NCBI GenBank assembly: GCA_000934665.2
Contig: KZ538585.1
Location: forward strand, 1 to 64,000
Length of the DNA stretch: 64,000 nt
DNA from: Catajapyx aquilonaris
Lineage: Eukaryota
Direction: 5' to 3'
The number at the start of each line of letters is the position of its first letter. Position 1 is the stretch's first letter. This document shows, one piece after another, positions 1,811 to 62,662 of the stretch. The notes below the pieces were generated by a model that was given only the letters and a program-made list of their open reading frames with translations, was not told the origin of the DNA and searched no databases. Position numbers and translations under genes: made by a program.

Positions 1811-2604
1811 GCCGATATTAATAATTGGTTTGCGATTTTGAGTTGTTTTTTTTTGCAATAAGCTTATTACTCGATCAAGAACTGTCTATATCGCAGAAAC
1901 GAAAAATTGCACGACTTTGGTGCAACCTGACACATTGTTGCCATTGTGACGTCAGGAATATTTTCCGACTGTATGAAAATTTGCGAATATTTTCTGCAGC
2001 TTTTTTAAAAAAAAGTTTAGGAGTAATTAAGAAGCATCTTAGTGGCCCCAAACTGCTGTTAAAATATTAGTTGGCTTCACGCCCTGTCCATTCATTAAAC
2101 CCCGAATTGTTGTGGGTGTGAGCCTCTCTCTAATTGGTCCGCATGCTCTTGGAAGCCCATAGGTCCCCTTTCAAAAAGCGTCGATATTTTCACCACCACC
2201 ACACCCCAACCCTCCACACAAAAACCGCTTTTCTTTCTGGTAATTAGCGCGCCAAATCACACACCCTCTGAATGGAGGGGTTGGCCTCCCAACACTTTTT
2301 GTGCGTATATCCATGTTGTACAACAGTTTTGTTGCGCTAGCTGGAATTTTCCGGAGCCTAATTGGAATCCGGGTATACAGCCCAGGATGGAAAATATATA
2401 TATATATCAGCCGGCGTTTAAAAAGCGATAAGATACACACTGTATTGTAATATATGCTCTTGTTATTCTGGATCTGCGCAGTGTTTTTCTCCCCGTCTAC
2501 GAATCGAGTTTGAGAATCTACATACGGTTCGGAAAATATTGGCCAACATTTACGAGCACTGCTGTTGCTTACCCCCGAATACCAACTGATCAACTACAGA
2601 TTTT

Positions 2605-3075: not shown

Positions 3076-5984
3076 GTGCCAACTGGTAGTGGCCTATCGC
3101 ACTACGTCCAAGTTGGGGAGTGAGCCAAGCAGTGTTGCCAAAATTAGTGTTAGCTATAATAGTTCACAGGTTGCAGCTGGTTGCTGGGGTAAACTTTGCC
3201 GTCTCCGAAGGTACAGCATCCTTTTTACCCCCCCTGGATAATAAGTAAGACATCAGCTGTTTAAGTGACTGGACCAAATCCGGTTGGTCGTATTGGTTCT
3301 CGACCTTGAAGGGACAGGGTTGCCAACTTCGGAAAAATGGGTTACAAGGTCTGGTTGTACGTATTACACGTATTATGTTTAATATGTGTGTTGGTTGCAT
3401 TCCGATCCTACCACATGCCCGGACCCTCCAACCGGTTTCCTGTACCGTTACGCATTCCTCCTCCTGGATGAGCGGAGTAGTTGTCCAGATGCACGAGATG
3501 GCGCCTGCTGCACCTGTACAGTTGAGGGCATGCTTACTTGAGAAATTCAGTTAGCACCACCGAGCAGGAAGTGTGTAGCAGTGACCATGGGTTGAATAAC
3601 GGAGAGACGAAAATTCGATGTCCCACCAGTGGTCAAATCCAGCAAAATATTGTTCTCAAGTGAGCAGGCCTTCTAGTATAGAACGTGTGTCGACCTTGAA
3701 CTGATGTTTATCCTGACTGTTCAGGGCAAGCCCGTCGAGCAGGGTTGCGCGCAAGTGAAGCCTGACACTCAGGATAAACCAGGCTCGGGTTGCCAATGAT
3801 AGGAAATTGAAGTAACTTTGGTGCTAGCAACGCTGCTGGCCACCCTCAGCAGCTGTGCCAATCGCATCCGAAAATGTTTGAGATTCCCCCAATAATAAAA
3901 GCGCATTTTGAATTCGAGTGTGTCGTGCGTGTGATGTGGATCGTGTCGCCATAAATGTAATGACCCACCTTCCAAAATAGAGAGGGGTCGTTGCGCCCTC
4001 AGGAGGAGGCCCATAATTTGGCAACCTTTTTCACCACTGGTCTAGCTGTGACATAGGCACAGATTTTGGCCGATTTTTCCCCCCCCCTGACCTCCCCTTT
4101 TCCCACAAAAAATCTGGCCTGGTTCCACCTGCATGAGCATTTTCTGGCAACTTGGCCCACCCACCCCCCACTTTTCAATGCAAGTTTTCTGCTCCGATGG
4201 GTTTCCCTGCGTGGCCATCAAGAATTAGCATGTGAAGAGACAATCACTCTCTCTCTCTCATTATGCTCTCCTCTCAAATCCATCCAATAGCCGCACCCGA
4301 GGGTTCATTTATGGGGCCTAATATGCCAATGGTGTTATGTCTGATGAGGACTTGTAAAAGAGAAAATAGAAAAAAAATGTTAATATCGAGATAAATACGG
4401 TATTGAAGATAAAAATGAAGTCTACAATTAAATACGTATAAAATAAATGGAACAAAATACTTTTATACAATATAATTAATATGTAAAATGTAACATAAAT
4501 AAATTGTATGAAATATAATCTAGTTGCTTTCTGAAAAATTAAATTTAATATAATGGTGGTCTATAAAAATAAATTAATATACAAAATATAATAATAAATT
4601 AATACGGTATATAATATAAATTTAAAATGCAGCGAATAACTACATTAATATGTAAACAAGAATATAAAATAAATATAGCCTATATTATTATTTTATATTC
4701 TTCGATTGTATATTATTTATTTATTTTAAATCAATCATATGCAAATACATAAAATCAATATACGCGTGAAATTAATTAAATATAAAATAAATGTAAAATA
4801 AATTACATAAGTGAAAACCAAGAAACAAACAAAGCTTCACTCAATCCTTGCAATGAAAGTGATGGTACAATGTTACGTGATGTTTTACTAGTACAGTAAC
4901 AATTACGCAATCATTGAAGTGTTACTAATATTAGTAAATAAAAAAAGCAAACAAAGTAAACAAAGAATTGAAATCAAAATAAACGAAATATAAACACGAA
5001 ATAAAGCAAGTTAAAGGCCCGGTCATCCTGGGTCCGCTTGTCCACTGGATTTATTACCATTATAAAGAGGTACGTGACAAAGTCGGAAGGGCGTCCAACC
5101 TCAGCCGAAATAATGTTGCGACTTCCGGTGGTGTGCGTGAGGGGACAGTGACCAGGTTTGGCGACAGATTGGCGCGAATTGCGTCATGTCAACGAACCGA
5201 CATGACAGCGCCATTTTGCATCATTTTATTGTTGTTGTTGTTCTCTATCCTTGCGTGCATAGATTGCTCGAACGGTGCGCATGGTTACACCGCAATGTGG
5301 TTGGAGGGAAGGTCAGGCAGCATGTCAACGAACGACCTCCAACACTCCGGACAACCTTGGGACCAAGCATTTTTGCGGGATTGTTGCATAAATTTGGCAG
5401 CAGTGTTGGGAGGGCATAACTCGAGCAGCGGTCCCAACTCTGACCTACTTGATTGCCTCCAGGGGGAGGGGGACTATGGGGCTACAGAGAGGGGGGGGGG
5501 GGGGGACTATGCTTTGCTTCCTCCCCAGCCCCCCTCCTCGACCACCCCAACGATAGACGAGTCTATGGGAGGGCCAGCCAGTCGGCGAGCCTTCTTTTTA
5601 ACCCGATCGATCACACACACCTCCAAAATAATTCAGGCCCCCCTTACACCTCAAATAACGCTTCAAAAATATATATAATTAGTTTGAAATTTTTGAACAC
5701 ACCAGGTGTAACACCAAGAATATTAAAACGCTCCCAAAAATGAAGGGCTCGGGTGAAAAACACGTTAACCGCCACTGCCAATTGAAATTATCACATACAG
5801 TATTTAATATTGCTAATCCTATAGTTATAGTATATTAAAACGCCTGCGCCATGCCGTGCCACTATATGATTTAGGAGTGAAGCAGCGTGCGCCACCTACT
5901 GATTTCCTTTCATAAGCTGTTAGCTGATGACTATAGTTTAGACCTAATTAGCGTAGGTTAGGAAACAGGTTGCCTTATAAACCA

Positions 5985-13239: not shown

Positions 13240-13277
13240 CTTAATTAATCGCCTTATTTTCTTCCTTTCAGGTGAGT
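13240..13277 (+). other. Recursive splice site (ratchet point) RP1, junction 13271/13272
   Basis: CTTAATTAAT (branch-like), CCTTATTTTCTTCCTTT, then CAG|GTGAGT. Confidence 0.72.
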
Positions 13278-13348
13278 ATAATTATCTGGACGTCCTGTTT
13301 TGAGTTGATTGGTGATCGTGATGCCCTCGTGATGGATTGGTGGAAGTG
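13272..13348 (+). other. Cryptic RS-exon (77 nt) downstream of RP1
   Basis: A second consensus donor, TG|GTGAGT, lies at 13349. Confidence 0.55.
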
Positions 13349-14689
13349 GTGAGTGGCAGACGCTTTTCGGTTGACCCCGTTCTGCTGTCTGGAAGTCTCG
13401 GTGCAACTAAAAAGAAGATATTTTTTTTTTTAAATTGTGCTATGGTGTAATTATGACTGGATAATTTTTGCGAACTGTGATTCCGGCGTCACTGCAGCTA
13501 CGACTTTTTTTATTTAAAAAAAGCAAAAGACGACAACCGCCCGTGTGAATGTCATTCGCAAATTTGCATTTCCTCGGTGACAAAGCCACCATGAAATCAT
13601 CATCGTGCTTAAAAAATAACAATAATCGGCAGATAAAAATAATGTTGATGGCCTCTAGCTTGAGCCGCCCTTGACACTGTTTGCTATTTGCTGCACATCT
13701 GACCTCGGTTTGCGAAGAGTTAACCGGCCACTAACATTCTCTCACTTTGAACAAACGGCGATAACCGGAATTTTTTCGAGCCACTATTTTTAGCGAGCAA
13801 AATTCTTGCAAATTTTTTTTCCTCCGCGTACTTTTTCGGCATTTTCTGGCTCTCAAAAAATTTCGTGGGGGGGGAGTTGTTTTGGCGCCTTACCCTGAAC
13901 CCGATCTTGTGGAGACTTTTGTTGTGAGAGGAACATGAGACCCAAGTTTGTGCCAAAGAATGCGCCGTGTCGACAATCAAGGAAATGATGATGATGAAGG
14001 TCGCACGTCCCATAAGCATGAATCAGCTCCGGGGTTGAACTTAGGGTTCAACGATTGATAAGCAATCGGAATAAGAGTCGCATAACTATAATTTGTAGGA
14101 TATCTCTCTTGTTGACGCGGTGTTGTCCAGGTCTTTTCCGGAATAGTTAATCTGGGGTGATAAGGCGTGGCGTGACCGCGGTAGTACCACATCCCTCGCA
14201 TAGATGCTGCTACTCTCAGGGTACAGTGCTGGACATTAAAATGGTGTTGTACTGGTGGCGCCGGCAGCCGATCGCGGCAAAAATAGCGAATTCATGAAAA
14301 GTTGCCTCCGTATGACTCGATCGAAATGTAGGTTCGCTCTTTTGCCGATTTCGGCTCGTGGCGCCGTACGACACCATTAATGTCCAGCACTGTACTACAG
14401 TTCTGACAAAGTACAGTGGGTCAGCTGTAATTGAGTTGAGGGGGGACAAGAAGTACCTCCCCATCTTTGGACCCCTTGCAAAGTCTCCAGCTGTGTGTAT
14501 AGTGTTGGTGGTGGTGGTGGGGGAGGTCAACGTCCGTGGCTTTGGCAACTCCACTTCCGCATGGAGCAGCCGCCGATCGAAACTAGTGGTGCCGACGCCG
14601 ACGACGCCGGCTCCAAAACATGCCTCCAAAACCGGAAGCGCCCTTCTTTTTTCCTGGCCGAAAAAAAATCAAAGCCTTCTTATACTTAC

Positions 14690-20774: not shown

Positions 20775-21020
20775 ACTAGCAGCAGATCCCGTTCTTCGTA
20801 CGGCCAAATTGTGCAAAATGGGTATGAAATAGCAAATATAGGTATGAAATGGACAAACTTTGCACATATTGTACAAGTACTAATTACTGTACAAAATTAG
20901 CTGGGCCCGATCCCGGACTGTCCACGTAGTACCATATCCCTCACGTAGATGGTGCACACTTCTGCGTACACTACCTGTCCGAACAGACAGAGTCACAGAC
21001 CCAAGCCAATTCTATATTGT
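20775..21020 (-). mobile_element. Non-autonomous Helitron-like element (family C)
   Basis: Starts ACTAG plus a small CCGT..ACGG hairpin (a CTAG 3' end on the minus strand). Ends GACAGAGTCACAGACCCAAGCCAAT, similar to sequence near 36846 and 40428. Confidence 0.5.
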
Positions 21021-22361
21021 TATCTCATTATCTCGCAATCTTACAATTCTGGTACAAGGCAAAGTTTTTTAATTAATTATTTTAGTGGGATAAAATTTTT
21101 GTGTTGACACGCAATTAGGGAATGTGTGGGCTAATTCTTACACTCCCACACAATCTCGTGTGTTAGCCAGTTACGTCGTATGCATGTGAAGCACGTGTGT
21201 TACGCACTTTTCATGCACGGAATGTTTATTTACTGCACCGGTGAATAAAGTGAGAGTAAAGTGCAAAAATCGCCATAATGCAAAAATAGAATTAGCAATA
21301 GGTCGGAGTTATTTTCTGCACACGCCAAAAAAAAGGCAGGCGTCCAATCGTCAGGGTTCATTGTCCTGTGTCCAAAGCTTGACCCCATCGATGCCCAACA
21401 GGTGGAGGAGTCCCCCCCATTGTGTGCGTGACGCATTTTGCACACTTTCTATTATTCACTCTCTATACACCCGCACCATCGCTTCTATTTTTTCTCTCTC
21501 AAATTTTTTTTTCGGGTGCACCCCTGTCCACGTGGGACCCCCAAACGACCCACCCCACCCAAAAAAAAAGCAAGGACAAAAGAATACCAGGAATGACCAG
21601 GTGATTCATGAGGGTCGTGAATAATCGGACGACCAATAATTCGGATCAATATTGGAAGGTGGAGTGCTGCTGGGATGGCATTTTTTTCTGCCAAACTGAA
21701 CGTGACATAGTTGGCAACACTGCCTACAGTTCCATAGTTGGCAAAATTTAAGAGAACTCGCAAAAAAAAAAAAATTAGATGCTAACAGGATAGTTCAATT
21801 CGGCAGAAACAGCCTTGCTGTGTGTGTCGCCTATCGTGCAGGATGATCCCGATGAAGACTTACCATGCAGGCTGTTATTTACGTAATGAAGTCAAATTCG
21901 CCATTGGAAATTGATGGTATCGCCACGAGCCGATGGCAGCGAAAGAGCTAATAGAAGTTATGAATAATTGGCAATAATTCGATCTTTTGCCGCCAACGAC
22001 TCTCGACGCCACCAGTACAACACCAGCACTGTGCTATTGCATGGTGCAACATTTGTTAATCCAGGTTAACATAACTTAATTCCAGGATTGGCTGCGTTAT
22101 AGTGATGCGCAGTGGGTTGAGTCCCTTTTAGTGTCTCACCCTGTACTTGGCCCCAATATATGAACCCAGAAAAACCGATGTAAGGTCAAGAATAAACCTG
22201 TTAATCTTCTAATCCTAGCCTTGGTTATCAGTAGCGGATAACTGCTGGGGTTAGTGTTTAACTAGCGGGTTTTACAGAAATCCCGTTGCGCACACTTTGA
22301 CCCTCACTCGTTTGTAATCGTCGCAGCTGGATGGATGGATGGACGGATGGGAAGGGGGGGN

Positions 22362-22612
<251 letters not shown>

Positions 22613-22996
22613 GGGAAAAAATTGCAATGAAATGGTGCACAGAGTTATTATTATAATTTTTGTAGCGTGTGTGCCAATTTTGGAGCTGTTCAAAAAGGTG
22701 AATTTGGGCTGGAAGGGAAATGAAAGGGTTTATTATTTTATATGGAAGGGAGGTTTGCGACACAAAACATTTTTTACTGCGAAGGTTTCACACCTCACCC
22801 GGTCGCCATTTTCACGGACGGTGCTGTGTATAGTTGAAGCCTCAGTTACTTGAGAGGAATCGAGGGCCTGCAGTTCCAGTTGACATGACGTGTCAGTGTC
22901 AGCAATTTTTTTGCAACAAGTTCTTCACTACTAAATGTATTAAATAAATGAATGTATTAAATTTATATATTAAATATATAAATATATAAATAACTA

Positions 22997-23090: not shown

Positions 23091-23562
23091 CGTGTGAGGA
23101 ATCATGGGCCTTTAACATATATAACATTTTAACATAAATCGACATTAAGTCGATTAATTAATTAATCTTATTCGTATTTATGTATTAATTTACTATATTT
23201 CTATTAATTTACTTTTAACTTCATATTTCTATTATTTACGGTATATAATATAAGTATAATAATTAATCGTAATTAATTAATAACTCGTTAAATTAAAAAC
23301 CGAAAATTACAAATAAAAATAAATTGCAAATACATGATTAAAAATTTTCTTGGTGGGGTGGGGTGCATCCCATTCTGCTCGCCATTTTTGGTCCATATTT
23401 ATTTATTTTATTTTATTTGTGTAAAAGATTTTTATTTTATGGCGAGGACGATACATGCTATTCGCCAGCCCCCCTTTTTTGTGTAACTTGTTTCCTTGGC
23501 AAGCTTGGCTGACCCCCAGACAGTCTCTCACAAGTGTATAGTGGGGGGGGGGGGGGGGGGGG

Positions 23563-23771
23563 NNNNNNNNNNNNNNNNNNNNNNNNNNNNNNNNNNNNNN
23601 NNNNNNNNNNNNNNNNNNNNNNNNNNNNNNNNNNNNNNNNNNNNNNNNNNNNNNNNNNNNNNNNNNNNNNNNNNNNNNNNNNNNNNNNNNNNNNNNNNNN
23701 NNNNNNNNNNNNNNNNNNNNNNNNNNNNNNNNNNNNNNNNNNNNNNNNNNNNNNNNNNNNNNNNNNNNNNN
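23563..23771. other. Assembly gap (209 N) flanked by poly-G
   Basis: Read directly. Confidence 0.99.
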
Positions 23772-25210: not shown

Positions 25211-27039
25211 TAAAATAGGAGCAACATAATTTTCTTAGCAGCCTCTTGGAATTTTTGGAGTGTGTATGAGTGTGCACCCACCCTTGTTGCAATGCACGAG
25301 CAACGTTAATAATTGCATTGTGCAATCATCAGGTATAGTGCCGACAGGCTATCCCACACCCCTTCTATAGATATGCGATCATAAAAAAGGAGGGGGGGGG
25401 GAGGGGAGCAGAATACAATGTTGCCATCAGTGGAGGTGTGTTGTTGAAGCTGGCAGCACGAGAGGCGTGAGAGCAATAAATTGATTACGAAACGAGCTAG
25501 GGCCTCGCTGGCGATAAAGGCCCCACCTCTGGCACATACACGGTTCGCCCAAATCAATTTATGGCCATCGGGACCTCGTTTGACCCACGCCCCACGTCAT
25601 GTCAACCCTAACATTTCGAAAATAAATTCGCGAATTATTTGAACTTGTGAAAATAATTCTTAGAATTATTATTGGAATGAGTCTGCTGTGCCTCTGTCCG
25701 GAGCGAGTCATCATCAGGCAATAGTGTGCGTCATCTATGTTAGGGATATGGTACTATGTGGGCAGTGTTGCCAACTAGTGTGCAATAAACTAAAATAATT
25801 TAAACTACCCCCCCAGCTGGCCCTTCCCCCAATAACGGGCAAAACTGGAGGGTTTTCCAAAGCCTAAATGGCGCGTATAAAATCTTTGCCGCTAAAAAGG
25901 GGGCTTGGCTTCTTCTTCTTGAAGGAAGAAGGTCAAAGACCTCCTTGGAATATAAATAAAAAAGGGAACTCTTGTTGGGGAGGGGGGGGGGGGGATTGAG
26001 TTTGTTTAGGGAACTGAAGACGGGCAGTAAAGATCGCCTGTCAGATACAAAGACGTCATTCTTGGTGCGAGTCTTTTTTCTCGCGTCGTTAGTATACCGT
26101 AACAACAGCGATGCGAGAGAAAAAAGGGGCTAAATTCCATTAGCAGCTGTGCTTTTCGACTCGTATAAATTTAGCAGCTACTTGATTAAGGCTGTTGTTC
26201 ATTTCAGCAGCGACATCGACATGCGAATGAAATATGCTAGAAACTAACAAAATGAATGCAAATAAATCGATGTAAAATTCAGGTACATAACATTACAGGT
26301 CGTTGCTTTTAATTTTATACCTATTTATACGCGCATTAAGGCTATGAATATGAAATTACGTAATCGATTAATTATTGTAGTAATACATCGACGAAGTTTT
26401 ATTCGAATAAAATAAAATGACACATGGTCGAGTGAAGCAAAATCGGACAAAATTAAAAATTAATTTAGGAACTTAGATGAACACGTAATAAATGAAATAT
26501 TCGCATAAATTGAAACCAGGAAATAATTTACAGGGCTTTTCAAAGGCTTATCATTTTAGAACACACAGGCTAACTATAATACACATTTCTTGTAGCTTTA
26601 ATAGTATAGGTGCTAATAATTCGTAGCTACAAATGGAAACCTGCTAATTAGAAAAACAGCTGTGCTTTATCGAGTGAAAAGACCTTGCGATCCGCTAGGA
26701 AGGCCTTGGGGGCCTAGAGGTATAGTGTGTACGTGCTGGCTGTATAGAGGAAGGGAGGTATTTGGGAGAGAAAGAATCGGGTTATATACTCGTCCTCTAT
26801 ACATTACTGCAATGTGCAGTGGTGGGGGCCGCATTCTTCCCCAATTTGGGCAGACCCGGGCCTTCTTCTTCTTCTCTCCTTATGCCCCCTCCCTCGCCCT
26901 TCCTTCCCCCTCCAGTATTTTTAGTGGCGATAAGCAAGTCGTTGACCCTTGGCGGCACACAGAAGGACGCTGAGGAGGGACTCACTCAACTCACGCAGCC
27001 TTGAATCAACCGCCATCATGCCATCATTCAACCTAATAC

Positions 27040-32688: not shown

Positions 32689-34745
32689 GTTGACATTCTC
32701 GTGACGTGGCCAGAATATTGCTGAGCGTTTGAATGCGTGACTTTGCGTATATGCCGAAATGGCAACTTAGCAGAGGCGAGATAGGCTGTCCCGATAGCGT
32801 GGGAGGTGAGCATCCAATCCTCGCTCGCGGAAAGAGGGACCGTGGTATAGTAGTGGTTGGGAGAGGGGGGGAGAAGAGCGTGAGAGTGTTTACAAGCGAG
32901 GCCGTTGACTTCCAGCGAGCCCCCCTTTTCCTTTTCCTTTTTTTTTTTTCTTCCTCCACTGGCTTTGCCTTTCTCCACATCGATTCCCATGTCATAGTCC
33001 AACTATACTGTACAGAACCCTGCCATATTTTTTTGTTGTCTTCTTTCAAAAGCGGGATGTTTATTTCCGGGGTAGGTCGGCGCTTGGTTGCATAACACGA
33101 GCGATTTCGCTAAAAGAATTCGCCCTGTTCTCGCTAGCTTGTGAACACGTCTGACCAATGAAATTAAAGTAGAAACAATAAGCAATATTCTGACTAGCGG
33201 TTTATTGCCTCCTAGTAGCGATATCAATCCCAAAAATGCTATTTGAAGATCTGAAGCAATATCGCTGGATGAGATTTGAGCGATATCGCGTCCCAACGTG
33301 ACGTCATCGAGCGACGTCGCCCAGTCTGGTGCGAGTGACCCCCAAAAGTGTGCGAATGCACCTTGATTCGGAGGGAAGTTTAATGAGGAGGACTCTCTGG
33401 CTTGGGTCCAACGGGTTGTTTATAGCCGCAAGCTTTAGATGAGATGATGGGGGGATCGAGCAAGCGTGACAACTACAGAGGAGGAGGAAGGGGGAGAGGG
33501 GGAGGCAAGGCTATGAATTATGCAGCTTGCACAACACAAGGGGTCGACCTCCTGACCCACAACTCATGAAAGATAGACCCGATTACTATGCATCGGGAAT
33601 CGCTGGTTTTGTGTCCAGGAAGAAGCTGCTTGTTTATAAGCAGTTGGTTACTTTTAGAGGTTATCAAAAATATTAGCTCGGGGTGACTAATCCTGACGAA
33701 TCGAGCCTATTGTGGGCATTGCACCACCCTGCATGTAATAATAGACACTAACCATGAGACAACTTCACATACGTATAGTGTATGTTTTTTTATGTGTCTA
33801 TCCTGTTCATGAATCGGTGGAGCCTGCAAAGAGCGGTGACCTCGAGGCAAGGTCACCACCCCGACGGCCTTCACCACGTATACAATATCCCGTTAGGGAT
33901 TCTCCTTTCTGAGACCTCGCTTTTTCGCATTACCGCTACCTTTTTTTTGTGTGTGCCACCCCTTCCCTGACCATATATAACTGACTCGCCTGTTTTCCCA
34001 CAAATATGTGTGGAATCCAGGATTTCCGACACAATTATTTGGATTCCTGAGTTATCCGGAATCCTGTTAGGAATCCAGGAATCATAGGATTTTCAAAAAG
34101 TTTTTGCAAATTACTGCTTTTTCCTTGATTCATCCAGATTCTCTTAGATTTACCCGGATTAGCAGATTCTCCGAATTTTCATCAAATCCTCCCTTATTAT
34201 AGATTTTTATTAATATTAGCTATTATTTATATTACATTACACATTATGTACGATTTTGATATATTTTGTACATAAAAGTTGCGTAGAAAAATATTGTATT
34301 TGTTATTTTGTGTATTTATGTTACGGTACCTATATTTTATTAAATAATATATAGATAATGTAAATCTAAATAATTGTAAATTAATTAAACTAAATAATTA
34401 TAAATAAGCGAATCTAAATAATTGTAAATAAGCGCATCGAATAAATTGCAAATAAAAAATTAATTCAAATAAGAATAAATAAATAAATATTAATCTAAAT
34501 AAAATGTAAATAATATATAAATGTAAGAGAGGTTGTGGTGTACACAACCTCTCTAATGTATTATAAATATATATAATATAGGTCTACGTTATATATTTAT
34601 ATTATAAATATGTATAATAAATAATGTATTAAATACATTAGGTTGTACACGGTATTGTATAGGTATGTTTAGATTTAGTATATAATATATTTATTATTTT
34701 ATATACTATATTAAATATTTCTGTCGATTTAAAGCGTCATCGTCA

Positions 34746-36732: not shown

Positions 36733-36876
36733 TAGTACCTCACATAGCTCATAGATGGCGCACCCTCCCTCTCTGCACACTGCTGCCACTCTCAGCTGTG
36801 CGAGGGGTAGTGGTACTACATGCTCCTAGCTGATGACTCACCGCGGACAGAGGGACAGACTTAAGCCAACTATATT
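36733..36876. mobile_element. Repeat family C copy
   Basis: TAGATGGCGCA..CTGCACACTGCTGCCACTCTCAG..GGGTAGTGGTACTACA is shared with 49640-49713; TGATGACTCACCGCGGACAGAGG is shared with 40413-40435. Confidence 0.75.
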
Positions 36877-39476: not shown

Positions 39477-39570
39477 CTAACCTAACCTATCCTAACCCTA
39501 AACAAACCCATCCTAACCCTAACCTAACCCATCCTAAACGACCCTAACCTAACCTAACCTAACCTAACCT
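39477..39570. repeat. Degenerate interstitial (CCTAA)n, the arthropod telomeric TTAGG motif
   Basis: CTAACCTAACC units, pure at 39544-39570. Confidence 0.8.
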
Positions 39571-40376
39571 GACAGTGGTGCCTATTTATTTAGCTTCAAT
39601 GTACGTACCAAAATTGCGATTTTCACGCGGAAATTGTCTGGTCTTATGCAAATATGTAGGGCACCGTTTTGCGGAAGAGCACCGTGTGTATATAGTGTGA
39701 GGGTGTATTTTGCAACAGCGGATACACACTCCATTAACTGACAAGGTGAACGGGAAAAGGAGATTCGATCAGCCCATTTTTTTGGGTGGAGGGGGGTACC
39801 TGCAAAAATTTTGTGAGGCTCGAATCGGTTGAGTTGTGATCAAAATGTGCGGAAAAAATGATGCATAATCACAGCCATGTGTTTTTGCATGACGTATGTA
39901 GGTCACCTGCAGTGAGCGTGCGAGGATTGCTCTTGGGGGGTGGTAAAATTCTCCCTTCCCTCCACCCCCCCCCCCTCCCTACTATTCCCGGTTCTAAACG
40001 AGTCATGAAAAGGCAATCCTTATCGGGGTTTATGCAATGCGGTAAAACCGAGGCTATTGCCCTTTTACTGCCGGGCCACACTGTATACAACACTGTGTCG
40101 CGCGGTGTCGCAAGTCCGAGTTACGTCACGCCCCATATTTTAAGGGGCATTATAAATTTACTAAGAGAGAGAACACAGAAAAAATAATGGTCGTGAGGAC
40201 ACGGGCTTCGTCCGTGGCGAAGGTTGGCACGTTGACCTCGGAGTCACGAGTCTGACCTCGCAGGTACGTATACCCGTGACATTCGCAGCGACTCGGGGGA
40301 AAGTGAGTCGCAATGTGGACATACCGCGTCGCTGTTTATAATTTTAAAAACTAGTGAAACGACCAGTGGCAGTGTA

Positions 40377-40455
40377 CGTACTACCATATTTCTCACATAA
40401 ATGACGCACTATTGATGACTCACCGCGGACAGAGGCACAGAACCAAGCCAATTAT
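40377..40455. mobile_element. Repeat family C copy (internally deleted)
   Basis: CGTACTACCATATTTCTCACATA...TGATGACTCACCGCGGACAGAGGCACAGAACCAAGCCAAT. Confidence 0.65.
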
Positions 40456-40502
40456 TCCAGCAACGATATTTAATTAAATGCCTATAATATTAACTAAATC
40501 TT

Positions 40503-40757
40503 TCGTTGTAAGACCGATTATTCTGATTGGCTCGCCGTATATTTTTGCGCGACGGTCATATTAATGCGCCTGCGCAATGGGGTGGAGGGAGTGCCTCTGG
40601 TGGGTGGAAGGAGGAACTAGTAATGTTAAAGTCCCTCGTTGTACGACCGAGGCTTCTGATAGGCCCATGTATATTGTTTGCGCGACGCTTCCTATTGGCC
40701 TCCGTTCTGCGCATGCGCAATGGGGGAAGCAGCGCCTCTGGTGGTTGGAAGAACTAG
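40503..40757. repeat. Diverged tandem duplication (~120-bp units ending GAACTAG)
   Basis: TCGTTGTA.GACCGA..TTCTGAT..TGCGCAATGGGG..GCCTCTGGTGG.TGGAAG..GAACTAG at 40503-40620 and 40636-40757. Confidence 0.75.
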
Positions 40758-40814
40758 CTTAAATGTAAATTGGTAATTTTAACTAGTAATTAGACACGTA
40801 CGTAATTTTTCATT

Positions 40815-40853
40815 GACTAACCGAATGTCCTTTCTCTCCTTTCGCAGGTGAGT
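40815..40853 (+). other. Recursive splice site (ratchet point) RP2, junction 40847/40848
   Basis: Perfect branch point GACTAAC (40815-40821), tract TCCTTTCTCTCCTTTC, then GCAG|GTGAGT. Confidence 0.78.
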
Positions 40854-41908
40854 AATCTTCTCTTCTGATGCTGGAATCACGACGAGTCGCTTCATCTCGC
40901 CCGGGGGGTTGGTTTTTCGGAGGGTGTACCAAACTTTTTTGGGGACAACCCCCCCATAAGCGAAAGCTCTCCTGGAGTTCTATTATCTGGCCAGGAGAAC
41001 ATAGTAACGGCCGAGCTTTGCAAAAGCCAATTAATGAGGACTTTCACGCCGGTTGCGTCACACGTGATAAATGGGACAGACTTTTTTTATGGGAGGGGGG
41101 GGGGGGCGTCCCAGCAATTATTTCCGTATATTACACCTTCACTTCTGGGCCCCCTTGGCGTAATCTGGCCAAAATATTTGTGCACTATATTTTTTACGAT
41201 ACATCTCAGCAGATAGTACGTGATGTGGTAAGTGTTACCTGATCATTAATTTAACAGATTGCTTCCGACAATGTTACGTAACGGGCTATTTTTTAAAATA
41301 ATTTTTTTTAAATTATTCGTGTCACTCTATGCACGTAATATCTGCATGTGAAGAAACTTTCTCACGTGGACCTTGGTCTAGAAAAGAGGCCGGCGGGGGA
41401 AAACGTTGCGAAAGGACGTGGGCTGGACTTTTTGCAAACAAAAAAAAAGAAGTGCTGCTGGCAATTTTCTCTGGGTCAATGTTGCCCCTGTGTGTTAACA
41501 GTTAGGCTTGACCCCGCGGGGGGCACTTTCACCTCGGGAGAATACAACAAGTACGCTCAATCCACTCTGATGGAGGGCAGGGACAAACATACGCATTGCC
41601 ACGAGACAGTACAGTATGGTTGTGGCTCCATACCTATATAGAGAAGATACTTTCACCGAAATCGAGTCACGACCTGCACAATTTCGATTGCCTATACCTT
41701 CCTTCACATCAGAGGGACAGGTGATCGTTTGGGTTCGTCGTACCCGTGTACTGGTTTTCCGCCACGGTTCCTCTCAAAAAGCCAAAAGTGTGGGTGGGTT
41801 TAACACTTACAGCCCAACTCCCACACTTGCACGATTAACGTGTTGAGTTAAATAATTAAATGCGGCAGGGGGATTTAAGTCTGTGCAAAATTTATATGAT
41901 TGCGTCAG

Positions 41909-42087
41909 ATTATTGGGATAGGATAGGAAAGAGGCGGCTGTGGCCTATTAGTTTAGGAAACAACTCCGGAATTCTCCTGGAGGAACCGTGGGAAACCACA
42001 GAAAACCACGGTTAGAGTTGCCGGCACCGGGATTCGAACCCAGGACCTCCCGATTAGCAGTCGGATACCATATCCCCACTGCTTCGG
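41909..42087 (-). mobile_element. tRNA-derived SINE with a 14-bp target-site duplication
   Basis: Minus strand has the B box GGTTCGAATCCC and a GGTTTTCTGTGGTTTCCC..CCAGGAGAATTCCGG..TAGGCCACAGCCGC body recalling insect Lm1/Talua-type SINEs (from memory). TSD TATGATTGCGTCAG lies at 41895-41908 and 42088-42101. Confidence 0.85.
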
Positions 42088-42139
42088 TATGATTGCGTCA
42101 GTTACGCTATGGAATAGTCTGCTTTAATATTTAGGCCAC

Positions 42140-60755: not shown

Positions 60756-62662
60756 CCTGTGTGCCAGAAATTCAAAAACTACAAACACGACGATCTGTAC
60801 AGGGTTTCTTGAAAATAATGTTTCGGACAGTGTTCAATGGAGATTTCCGTCCGATCATTTCTCGTTCTTTACTGACACCGAGCGTACGGATAGTGTGTGT
60901 GTCCTCCATTAGAACTTGGTGCAAATGATGATTGAAGGTGAAGTGCAATATTGTATATATCTGTTGGATAGAAATGAGTGTTTACGTGGAACCTATGACT
61001 GAAGGCTATCGAGCGCGTCACATCCGGGGTGAGTGTCCAGCCTAGACACATGCGTGCCCTTCCTCGCCGCTAGATGGAATCCGCAACACTTGTACGTAGC
61101 GTTGGCTAAAAAAGTCTAGTAGAAGCGTGGGTGCAGGTGTTTTGCAAAAGGTGGGTGGGTGGGTGGGTGGGTGAGAGACACACAATGGAGGGCAGGGGGT
61201 TACTAGTGGTGGTGGTGGGGGATATAATAGAGACCCTGGCGTTCCGGAGGCTAGGTTGCTGCTTTGGCTATTCCTGCACGTGTGTCCCTGAGTTTTGCGC
61301 TGCCTCCTACCCTCTCTCTCCCCTCCATACCCTCTCCCTCTCCATCGGCGGTGGTAGGCACATAGCGGTTCCAGCGTTCACCGGGTTCAAGGCAGGACAG
61401 GCCCTGCCCAAGGCCTTACCCCTGCGCCGGAGAAGCAAGGCTCCCTCCCTCGCTCAACTCCGCCCACACAAACACACTACTACCCTCCATTCCACCATAT
61501 TTTTTTTTGCACAATACATTACTATCCGCATATTACACAACACACATGCTAAGAGAAAATGGGGGGACAGCCGGACAGGTGATGGTGACACTATATTTCC
61601 TAGAATCATGGGCGAAGAAAGGGTCGAATATATCCGGCATTGACTTTTGCGTCTCTGTATATAGGAGACAAATCTGTATTCGTGTCTCCTTCATCTGATG
61701 GTTAGTAGCAAAATTGGAAACACGCTGCTAACGAGCCTTTTTAAACTAATTCGACCCGCACAGGTTGAGAGCCATGCCATTCTGTGTGGCCTGCTTACGT
61801 CAGAGATGGAATTGGCACGCCTGATTATATGCTCGCATGTGATTGGCTAGTTCGAATCAGTCGTGCCAATATGTTACATAAAATAAGTAAATACGTAGTA
61901 CAGTACAAAGTATGTAACAGTAGTAAATACATACATGTACGTAAATCAATTAATATATTTGCTACTGTTACATGTACTTTATATGTATACTTCATTTACA
62001 CTTTGTTTATTTACTTGTTTACTTGTAAATTTACAAGTGCATGTGTAAATAATAAACAGGTAAATAAAGTGTCGCGCCTAGCTGTGAGGATAAACAGCGT
62101 TGCAGGGCGCCCAATTGCAAATACAATACATAAAATATTTGACGAAAATATTAAGGGACATGTAACGAAAAAATTAGTCATACATGAAAATATTCAGTCA
62201 TTTGAATATGTAGACTAATGTTCGTGTAATACGATGCAATAATGGGAGGGGGAGGGTACAACTATCTAAAACAGGGTTATCAATAATTCATATTCAGTTG
62301 TAATGTTAGGTTCGCAAAAAAAGGGCCGAAATTTTTGCAAGTTTTACGCTTTTTTATATAACTTAGTTTCATCCGTGTTGGCTGACAGTTGCAAATTTTT
62401 TTCCAGCATTCGAGCCTTTACAAAGTTGGTGAAAAGGTAGTTCCGCGAATTCTGTGCGTGTGACGCAGGTTTTCCGTATAGAAAATTACAGCCTTTTTTC
62501 AACTCGCTTCGTTTACTCGTCAGTGTTACGATGTACACACGAACGAATCATAGGCTACTTAATCTTAACTACAGTGCAATTAGACCTTTGAACGTCCTTA
62601 TTCTCCTCATGGGCATACGATATAATCAGGATATAACACATCAAAATATTAATATAATTATT

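Follow-up and report, generated by a model that had tools for sequence, protein, structure and literature searches.

A candidate recursive splice site and its same-strand twin in a 64-kb stretch of the Catajapyx aquilonaris genome

The window, meaning the whole 64,000-nt stretch of DNA that was analysed, comprises positions 1 to 64,000 of contig KZ538585.1 from Catajapyx aquilonaris (GenBank assembly GCA_000934665.2), with the forward strand taken as plus. For protein families, Pfam was applied to stop-to-stop ORF pieces from either strand that were 45 aa or longer, 599 of 673 in all (set aside were 65 pieces of 45–49 aa, eight minus-strand pieces at 62.0–63.7 kb and one RE-repeat ORF), and no family was matched at the curated cut-off. 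Sub-threshold rows were FnI_RECK and Pacifastin_I at 2422–2586 (plus) and DUF7101 at 33307–33510 (minus). A further sub-threshold row, Tmp39, fell in a 149-aa ORF at 61769–62215 (plus; 19 bits versus a cut-off of 28, E = 0.00074); this match, the sole hint of a plus-strand coding exon, is probably spurious. A 231-aa ORF at 4983–5675, considered as a signal-peptide exon, was dropped, having no Pfam match and containing a G-run. Given that no Pfam family was matched, the window has the character of an exon-poor stretch, as a giant intron would, and since no exon or gene was anchored by Pfam, we infer rather than observe that the site described below lies inside a long plus-strand intron.

Donor-like sites of at least 8.5 bits numbered 46 on the plus strand and 34 on the minus strand. 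Three of the 46, at 1368, 30635 and 36118 (10.1–11.0 bits), had been put forward in an earlier sequence-only reading as the donors upstream of the site; standing among so many similar sites they are not special, and RNA would be needed before any of them could be read as an exon. G exceeded C on the plus strand in most 2-kb bins, and AATAAA and ATTAAA together numbered 114 on plus versus 132 on minus; both counts could be, at best, weak hints of plus-strand transcription.

Several repeats were recorded in the window. An interstitial (CCTAA)n array at 39477–39570, with 18 copies at 74% match, reads TTAGG on the other strand, and TTAGG is the repeat unit of arthropod-type telomeres. Rfam gave a single, borderline match, to tRNA, at 42019–42096 (minus; 30.3 bits versus a gathering score of 29), where, as in the rest of the window, ARAGORN called no tRNA; the element is possibly a SINE of tRNA origin or else a pseudogene. 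A (GA)n/(TC)n microsatellite of ~300 nt is found at 22300–22650, runs of G10–14 are many and scattered, and G-runs stand on both flanks of an assembly gap at ~23560–23770 (212 N), so that distances spanning this gap are approximate. A dispersed short repeat, TGATGACTCACCGCGGACAGAGG...AAGCCAA, occurs at 40413–40455, 36831–36873, 25686–25759 (minus) and 20986–21011; its full-length copies, the first two, are 88% identical and carry a minus-strand donor-like GCG|GTGAGT.

The features needed for the argument are the following.

40848–40855, plus strand: 5′ splice site GTGAGTAA, which splicing to 40848 would re-create; CAGGTRAGT is found here and at just one other place in the window
40848–40907, plus strand: possible cryptic RS-exon of 60 nt, the closing donor of which, GGG|GTTGGT (GT at 40908), is weak
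40503–40751, plus strand: tandem duplicated module of ~110 nt, ending 97 nt upstream of the junction
13252–13279, plus strand: sister site RP1, CCTTATTTTCTTCCTTTCAG|GTGAGTAT, junction 13271|13272; 18 of 20 upstream positions pyrimidine; 14.90 bits, second of 463
13272–13348, plus strand: candidate RS-exon of the sister (twin) site, 77 nt, closed by GTG|GTGAGT at 13349

Across the junction at 40847|40848, the plus strand reads ttGACTAACcgaatgTCCTTTCTCTCCTTTCGCAG|GTGAGTaatc. The branch-point consensus GACTAAC occupies 40815–40821 (plus); its branch A, position 40820, lies 27 nt 5′ of the G of the AG at 40847, and a YTNAY scan placed CTAAC at −31 relative to the junction. The pyrimidine tract TCCTTTCTCTCCTTTC (40828–40843, plus) is 16 nt long and uninterrupted, and is followed by GCAG (40844–40847, plus), in which the G at −4 of 40848 takes the N position of the (Y)nNCAG consensus and CAG forms the 3′ splice site, with the junction after 40847. 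GTGAGT (40848–40853, plus) abuts the CAG. Pyrimidines fill 17 of the 20 upstream positions (longest run 16), and the interval from the branch A to the 3′ AG is free of any AG. This anatomy is directly observed: GACTAAC, the tract, GCAG and GTGAGT, all named in the sequence-only reading, are each present on the plus strand within 40815–40853. T and C are found at −6 and −5 (TTTCGCAG|), so that the fly-like TT is absent. A stop codon occurs within 21 nt of 40848 in all three frames, as would suit a sequence that mRNA never retains. The candidate is plausible and well formed, and the window contains a single copy of it.

All AGGT sites in the window (242 on plus, 221 on minus) were scored with acceptor and donor weight matrices, which are crude, being built on generic metazoan frequencies. 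With its preceding CAG, the donor at 40848 scored 12.89 bits, the maximum possible for the matrix used, and the acceptor part scored 11.90 bits, the highest among the 463 AG|GT sites. The abutting 3′ and 5′ splice sites on which the sequence-only reading was built hold up under this scoring, since acceptor (11.90 bits) and intronic donor (5.07 bits) sum to 16.97 bits, first of the 463; 13271|13272 follows at 14.90 bits and the third site at 5.54 bits (z = 4.4 and 4.1 for the first two, the third lying more than 9 bits below). A perfect GTRAGT donor combined with C at −3 and at least 17 of 20 upstream pyrimidines was found only at these two junctions among the 463 sites. CAGGTRAGT occurs twice on plus (13269 and 40845) and not on minus in the whole window, and 20-mers with at least 17 pyrimidines make up 1.16% of positions on plus and 1.84% on minus. 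In Markov simulations of order 1, 3 and 5, at least one such site appeared in 0, 1 and 1 of 300 windows (both strands), respectively, the simulated expectation being ~0.003 per window.

The match at 40847|40848 is statistically exceptional and more than chance. One site of such quality is expected by chance every few Mb, and the window was chosen because the motif is present in it; a stronger argument than 40847|40848 alone is that another site of equal quality shares its strand. Both top sites are on plus and none is on minus, corresponding to 3.1 per 100 kb in a sample of a single window. According to Table 2 of PMC2773006, strand asymmetry marks selected ratchet points in long introns of invertebrates.

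The twin junction 13271|13272 is located 27.6 kb upstream of 40847|40848 on the same strand, has T at both −5 and −6, and lies in AT-rich, CpG-poor surroundings without a CpG-dense or motif-rich upstream region. Its 77-nt candidate exon is open in one frame, and the closing donor at 13349 scored 9.85 bits (99.4th percentile), weaker than the 12.89-bit ratchet-point donor; this layout corresponds to the fly RS-exon arrangement as described in PMC8605326. The twin region, 13252–13353, is a more canonical recursive-site candidate than 40847|40848. Searches with the exact 24-nt cores of both sites against metagenome contigs gave 0 matches each.

For fly ratchet points, recognition via a cryptic RS-exon of ~50 nt has been described, with a downstream donor generally weaker than the regenerated one, and in the fly model a cryptic exon is forced into the mRNA when the ratchet-point GT is mutated (PMC8605326). 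A 60-nt RS-exon had been suggested at 40848 from the sequence; its donor at 40908 is indeed present and weak, but at 2.94 bits it is not a convincing exon-closing donor. An alternative closing donor at 40924, giving a 76-nt exon, scored 2.46 bits. These two are the best donors within 200 nt downstream of 40848, and both fall below the 90th percentile (4.4 bits) of 3784 GTs; the next good donor is GTG|GTAAGT at 41228, with 9.54 bits.

CpG density in the window is highest in two stretches, 40001–40900, which runs up to the site, and 1001–1400 (29–32 CpG per 400 nt, observed/expected 1.0–1.4). Each ends at a plus-strand GTGAGT donor (40848 and 1369, respectively), and both stretches are possible promoters or first exons. 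Within the former, 40503–40610 is duplicated at 40636–40751 with 74% identity over 119 columns, and each copy of the module contains ATTGG and the palindrome TGCGC[AC]TGCGCA (the TGCGCATGCGCA motifs), which we take to resemble CCAAT-box and NRF1-type promoter motifs; GCGCCTCTGGTGG is presumably to be seen as loosely like a CTCF site. The 12-mer TGCGC[AC]TGCGCA is found four times in the window, at 40565, 40708, 17508 and 42555, and the module or 12-mer family could represent a regulatory element or a repeat that has become dispersed. A second, similar palindrome accompanies the 12-mer, 20–35 nt away, at 17.5 kb and 42.55 kb. The site might have been a degenerate third unit of the tandem module, but this reading was rejected, its above-shuffle score arising only from overlapping coordinates.

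At the ~17.48-kb copy (minus), the 12-mer is followed by TCCTTTC-CTCCTATTGGTCGCAGGTG, which aligns with the site's own TCCTTTCTCTCC--TT--TCGCAGGTG. The score of this 27-nt likeness (TCCTTTC..CTCC..TCGCAGGTG), one of 11 comparisons, was reached by 1 of 1000 dinucleotide shuffles, and part of the 40848 motif may for this reason come from a dispersed element. The same copy has a poor donor, GTGCCT. For the twin at 13271, comparison with the ~17.5-kb element gave a score of 17, reached by 170 of 1000 shuffles.

This recurrence beside the 12-mer, with its poor donor, counts in favour of an unused motif at 40848, one that arose by chance or was carried by a dispersed short element and has no splicing function, the region being untranscribed on plus or the site ignored. 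We consider such an origin unlikely, yet deserving of serious weight: Pfam ties no gene or exon to the window, other short dispersed repeats are near (40413–40455 versus 36831–36873, at 88%), and the window was selected for its motif, for which the antisense or background density tabulated in PMC2773006 is ~0.1 per 100 kb. An unused motif does not readily account for two same-strand sites with maximal donors and 17–18 of 20 pyrimidines against the ~0.003 expected per window, or for the distance of more than 9 bits that separates them from the other 461 AG|GT sites. The likeness at 17.5 kb spans just 27 nt in 1 of the 11 comparisons, and the twin owes nothing to that element.

The promoter-like look of the CpG-dense module suggests another role for GTGAGT at 40848, namely as the donor that closes a tiny first exon transcribed from an internal (alternative) promoter. 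Transcription would start in the tract, at a TCT/5′TOP-like initiator (TCCTTTCT, 40828), or at TCATTG (40810), and would be driven by the CpG-dense, CCAAT/NRF1-like module at 40000–40750. The two most CpG-dense stretches both ending at a GTGAGT donor, the two tandem module copies with ATTGG and TGCGC[AC]TGCGCA, and a YYCTTTYY match at 40828 would all find a place in this arrangement, and as CAG belongs to the donor consensus, only the pyrimidine tract would need another cause. YYCTTTYY, however, occurs 42 times in the window, and the exon would measure just ~18–36 nt. Coding exons would be predicted soon after 40848, and none was seen on plus for 23 kb: 0 Pfam families reached the cut-off in the plus-strand ORF pieces from 40.8 to 64 kb (at least 45 aa, or at least 50 aa beyond 59 kb, a scope that misses shorter exons), and no ribosomal-protein or translation-factor exon, as a TCT/5′TOP start would lead one to look for, was found downstream among those pieces. 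A CTAAC at −27 and an AG-free interval are not expected in a first exon, and the AT-rich twin at 13271 shares the tract-CAG|GTGAGT layout without any CpG-dense sequence upstream. Because a first exon leaves these features unexplained and coding exons are not seen where it predicts them, recursive splicing is preferred over it, and we rate a first exon at 40848 as rather improbable.

Splicing to 40848 could also serve an expressed alternative exon, probably non-coding or of the poison type and included in some mRNAs, for example 40848–41227 closed at 41228. The acceptor is very strong, the donor at 41228 reaches 9.54 bits, and expressed RS-exons, fewer than 50 in flies, may number in the thousands in mammals, as PMC8605326 has it. 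The 40848 donor, however, is maximal and stronger than every donor downstream, so that competition would favour skipping. As a coding cassette the interval does not hold up: 380 nt long, it has early stops in three frames, a 13-G run, no Pfam match and no protein relative. In a protein-level search with the 128-aa ORF at 40856–41239 against a collection without the window's own ORF, six word candidates were returned, none at E ≤ 0.001. Inclusion of such an exon is in our estimate quite improbable.

A combined arrangement, which we think very doubtful, is that a ratchet point is functionally linked to the promoter- or insulator-like module, duplicated and dense in CpG, that lies 97 nt upstream; GTGAGT would then have a dual role, as regenerated donor for transcripts from far-upstream promoters and as first-exon donor for those from an internal promoter, merging promoter isoforms onto a common splicing path. 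An intronic landing site for U1 snRNP without a splice junction, acting against premature polyadenylation or in trans-splicing bridging, would suit nine nucleotides in mid-intron that agree perfectly with the donor consensus and has a conserved intronic U1-binding motif of such a role in fly mod(mdg4) as precedent (PMC4387717), but it leaves the branch site, tract and AG directly in front of the donor at both sites unexplained and is scarcely credible.

The best explanation, to which we assign an even chance, is that 40847|40848 would be a fly-type intronic ratchet point in use inside a long plus-strand intron. For this reading we infer that the region is transcribed on plus, that the junction is used and that the steps follow a given order. 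A long plus-strand transcript would cross the window, and U2AF and U2 would recognise CTAAC as the branch site, together with the 16-nt pyrimidine tract and the CAG. The upstream exon would be joined to 40848, where its 3′ end, abutting GTGAGT, would rebuild a consensus 5′ splice site; this rebuilt site would be used in the next step, and no nucleotide from here would enter the mRNA. The ratchet point before this one would be the twin at 13271|13272, and the intron would be removed in pieces of ~12 kb or less (if its start is within the window), 27.6 kb (including the 212-N gap) and more than 23 kb. Against a ratchet point stand the C at −5, the weak downstream donors, the upstream CpG-dense module and the 27-nt dispersed likeness.

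Ratchet points, or zero-nucleotide recursive sites, are known in Drosophila from Ubx, kuz, osp, fz and Bx (Hatton 1998 and Burnette 2005, as cited; Duff 2015, 10.1101/006163; PMC6110457; PMC8605326). The site at 40847|40848 resembles them in its (Y)nNCAG|GTRAGT sequence with a prominent tract and a branch site 27 nt upstream, in a donor at 40848 that exceeds any downstream cryptic donor, in downstream sequence that is out of frame and full of stops, and in the presence of a second site on the same strand with none antisense. It differs in having C at −5, where 196 of 197 D. melanogaster ratchet points are reported to have TT at −5/−6 (10.1101/006163), a fly-specific statistic that may not hold in another taxon; in GTGAGT, where the consensus given in reviews is GTAAGT; and in the lack of a clear RS-exon donor. 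Recursive sites are described as enriched in first introns, with fly pieces typically of 9–15 kb (PMC6110457), and the pieces here would be longer, at 27.6 kb and more than 23 kb. Vertebrate RS-exons (Sibley 2015 and Blazquez 2018, as cited in PMC8605326; PMC6224609), which according to these sources are often annotated, expressed exons, share an exon-definition step and regeneration of the 5′ splice site at the first base of the exon, a layout also seen in the twin at 13272–13348, and differ from 40848 in that its closing donor is weak.

Outside Drosophila, Table 2 of Shepard et al. 2009 (PMC2773006) lists how many high-scoring RP sites fall in each 100 kb of annotated introns above 50 kb in length. 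Densities on the sense and complementary strands are there 2.196 and 0.101 for fly, 1.029 and 0 for mosquito, 0.484 and 0.122 for bee, 0.807 and 0.101 for beetle, and 0.540 and 0.066 for sea urchin; in the four species other than fly, the sense enrichment ranges from 4-fold to above 10-fold, and the vertebrate ratios are ~1. If the window is such a long intron, most sense-strand matches of this quality would be selected. As in the tabulated invertebrates, high-scoring RP sites are strand-specific here and lie in an exon-poor stretch, 2 per 64 kb versus 0, on the order of the fly value; unlike in those annotated introns, the sense strand is here taken from the sites themselves. In locust, a recursive site predicted in the 230-kb intron 2 of NPF1 is reported to have support from U2AF65 RNA immunoprecipitation (PMC8892266). 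It resembles the present site in combining a motif-predicted branch point, a T/C tract and AG|GT in a non-drosophilid arthropod, within a very long intron (here a presumed one), and differs in having the U2AF65 pull-down behind it. A literature search on recursive splicing with mosquito and with crustacean returned, among the titles and abstracts of the matches listed, no RNA mapping in another arthropod. The sequence-only reading had described the phenomenon as little documented outside drosophilids; this is fair for experiments and overstated in view of the enrichment in four invertebrates (PMC2773006) and the locust site (PMC8892266).

The understanding of the mechanism would be unchanged, as the anatomy is the known one of fly ratchet points. 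Evidence from outside Drosophila has so far consisted mostly of motif enrichment (PMC2773006) and one locust pull-down (PMC8892266), in so far as these sources report it. If used, 40848 and its twin would be concrete, directly testable recursive splice sites outside Drosophila, and, for a 64-kb stretch with no other features, the pair points to the strand that is probably transcribed, an indication that would aid its annotation.
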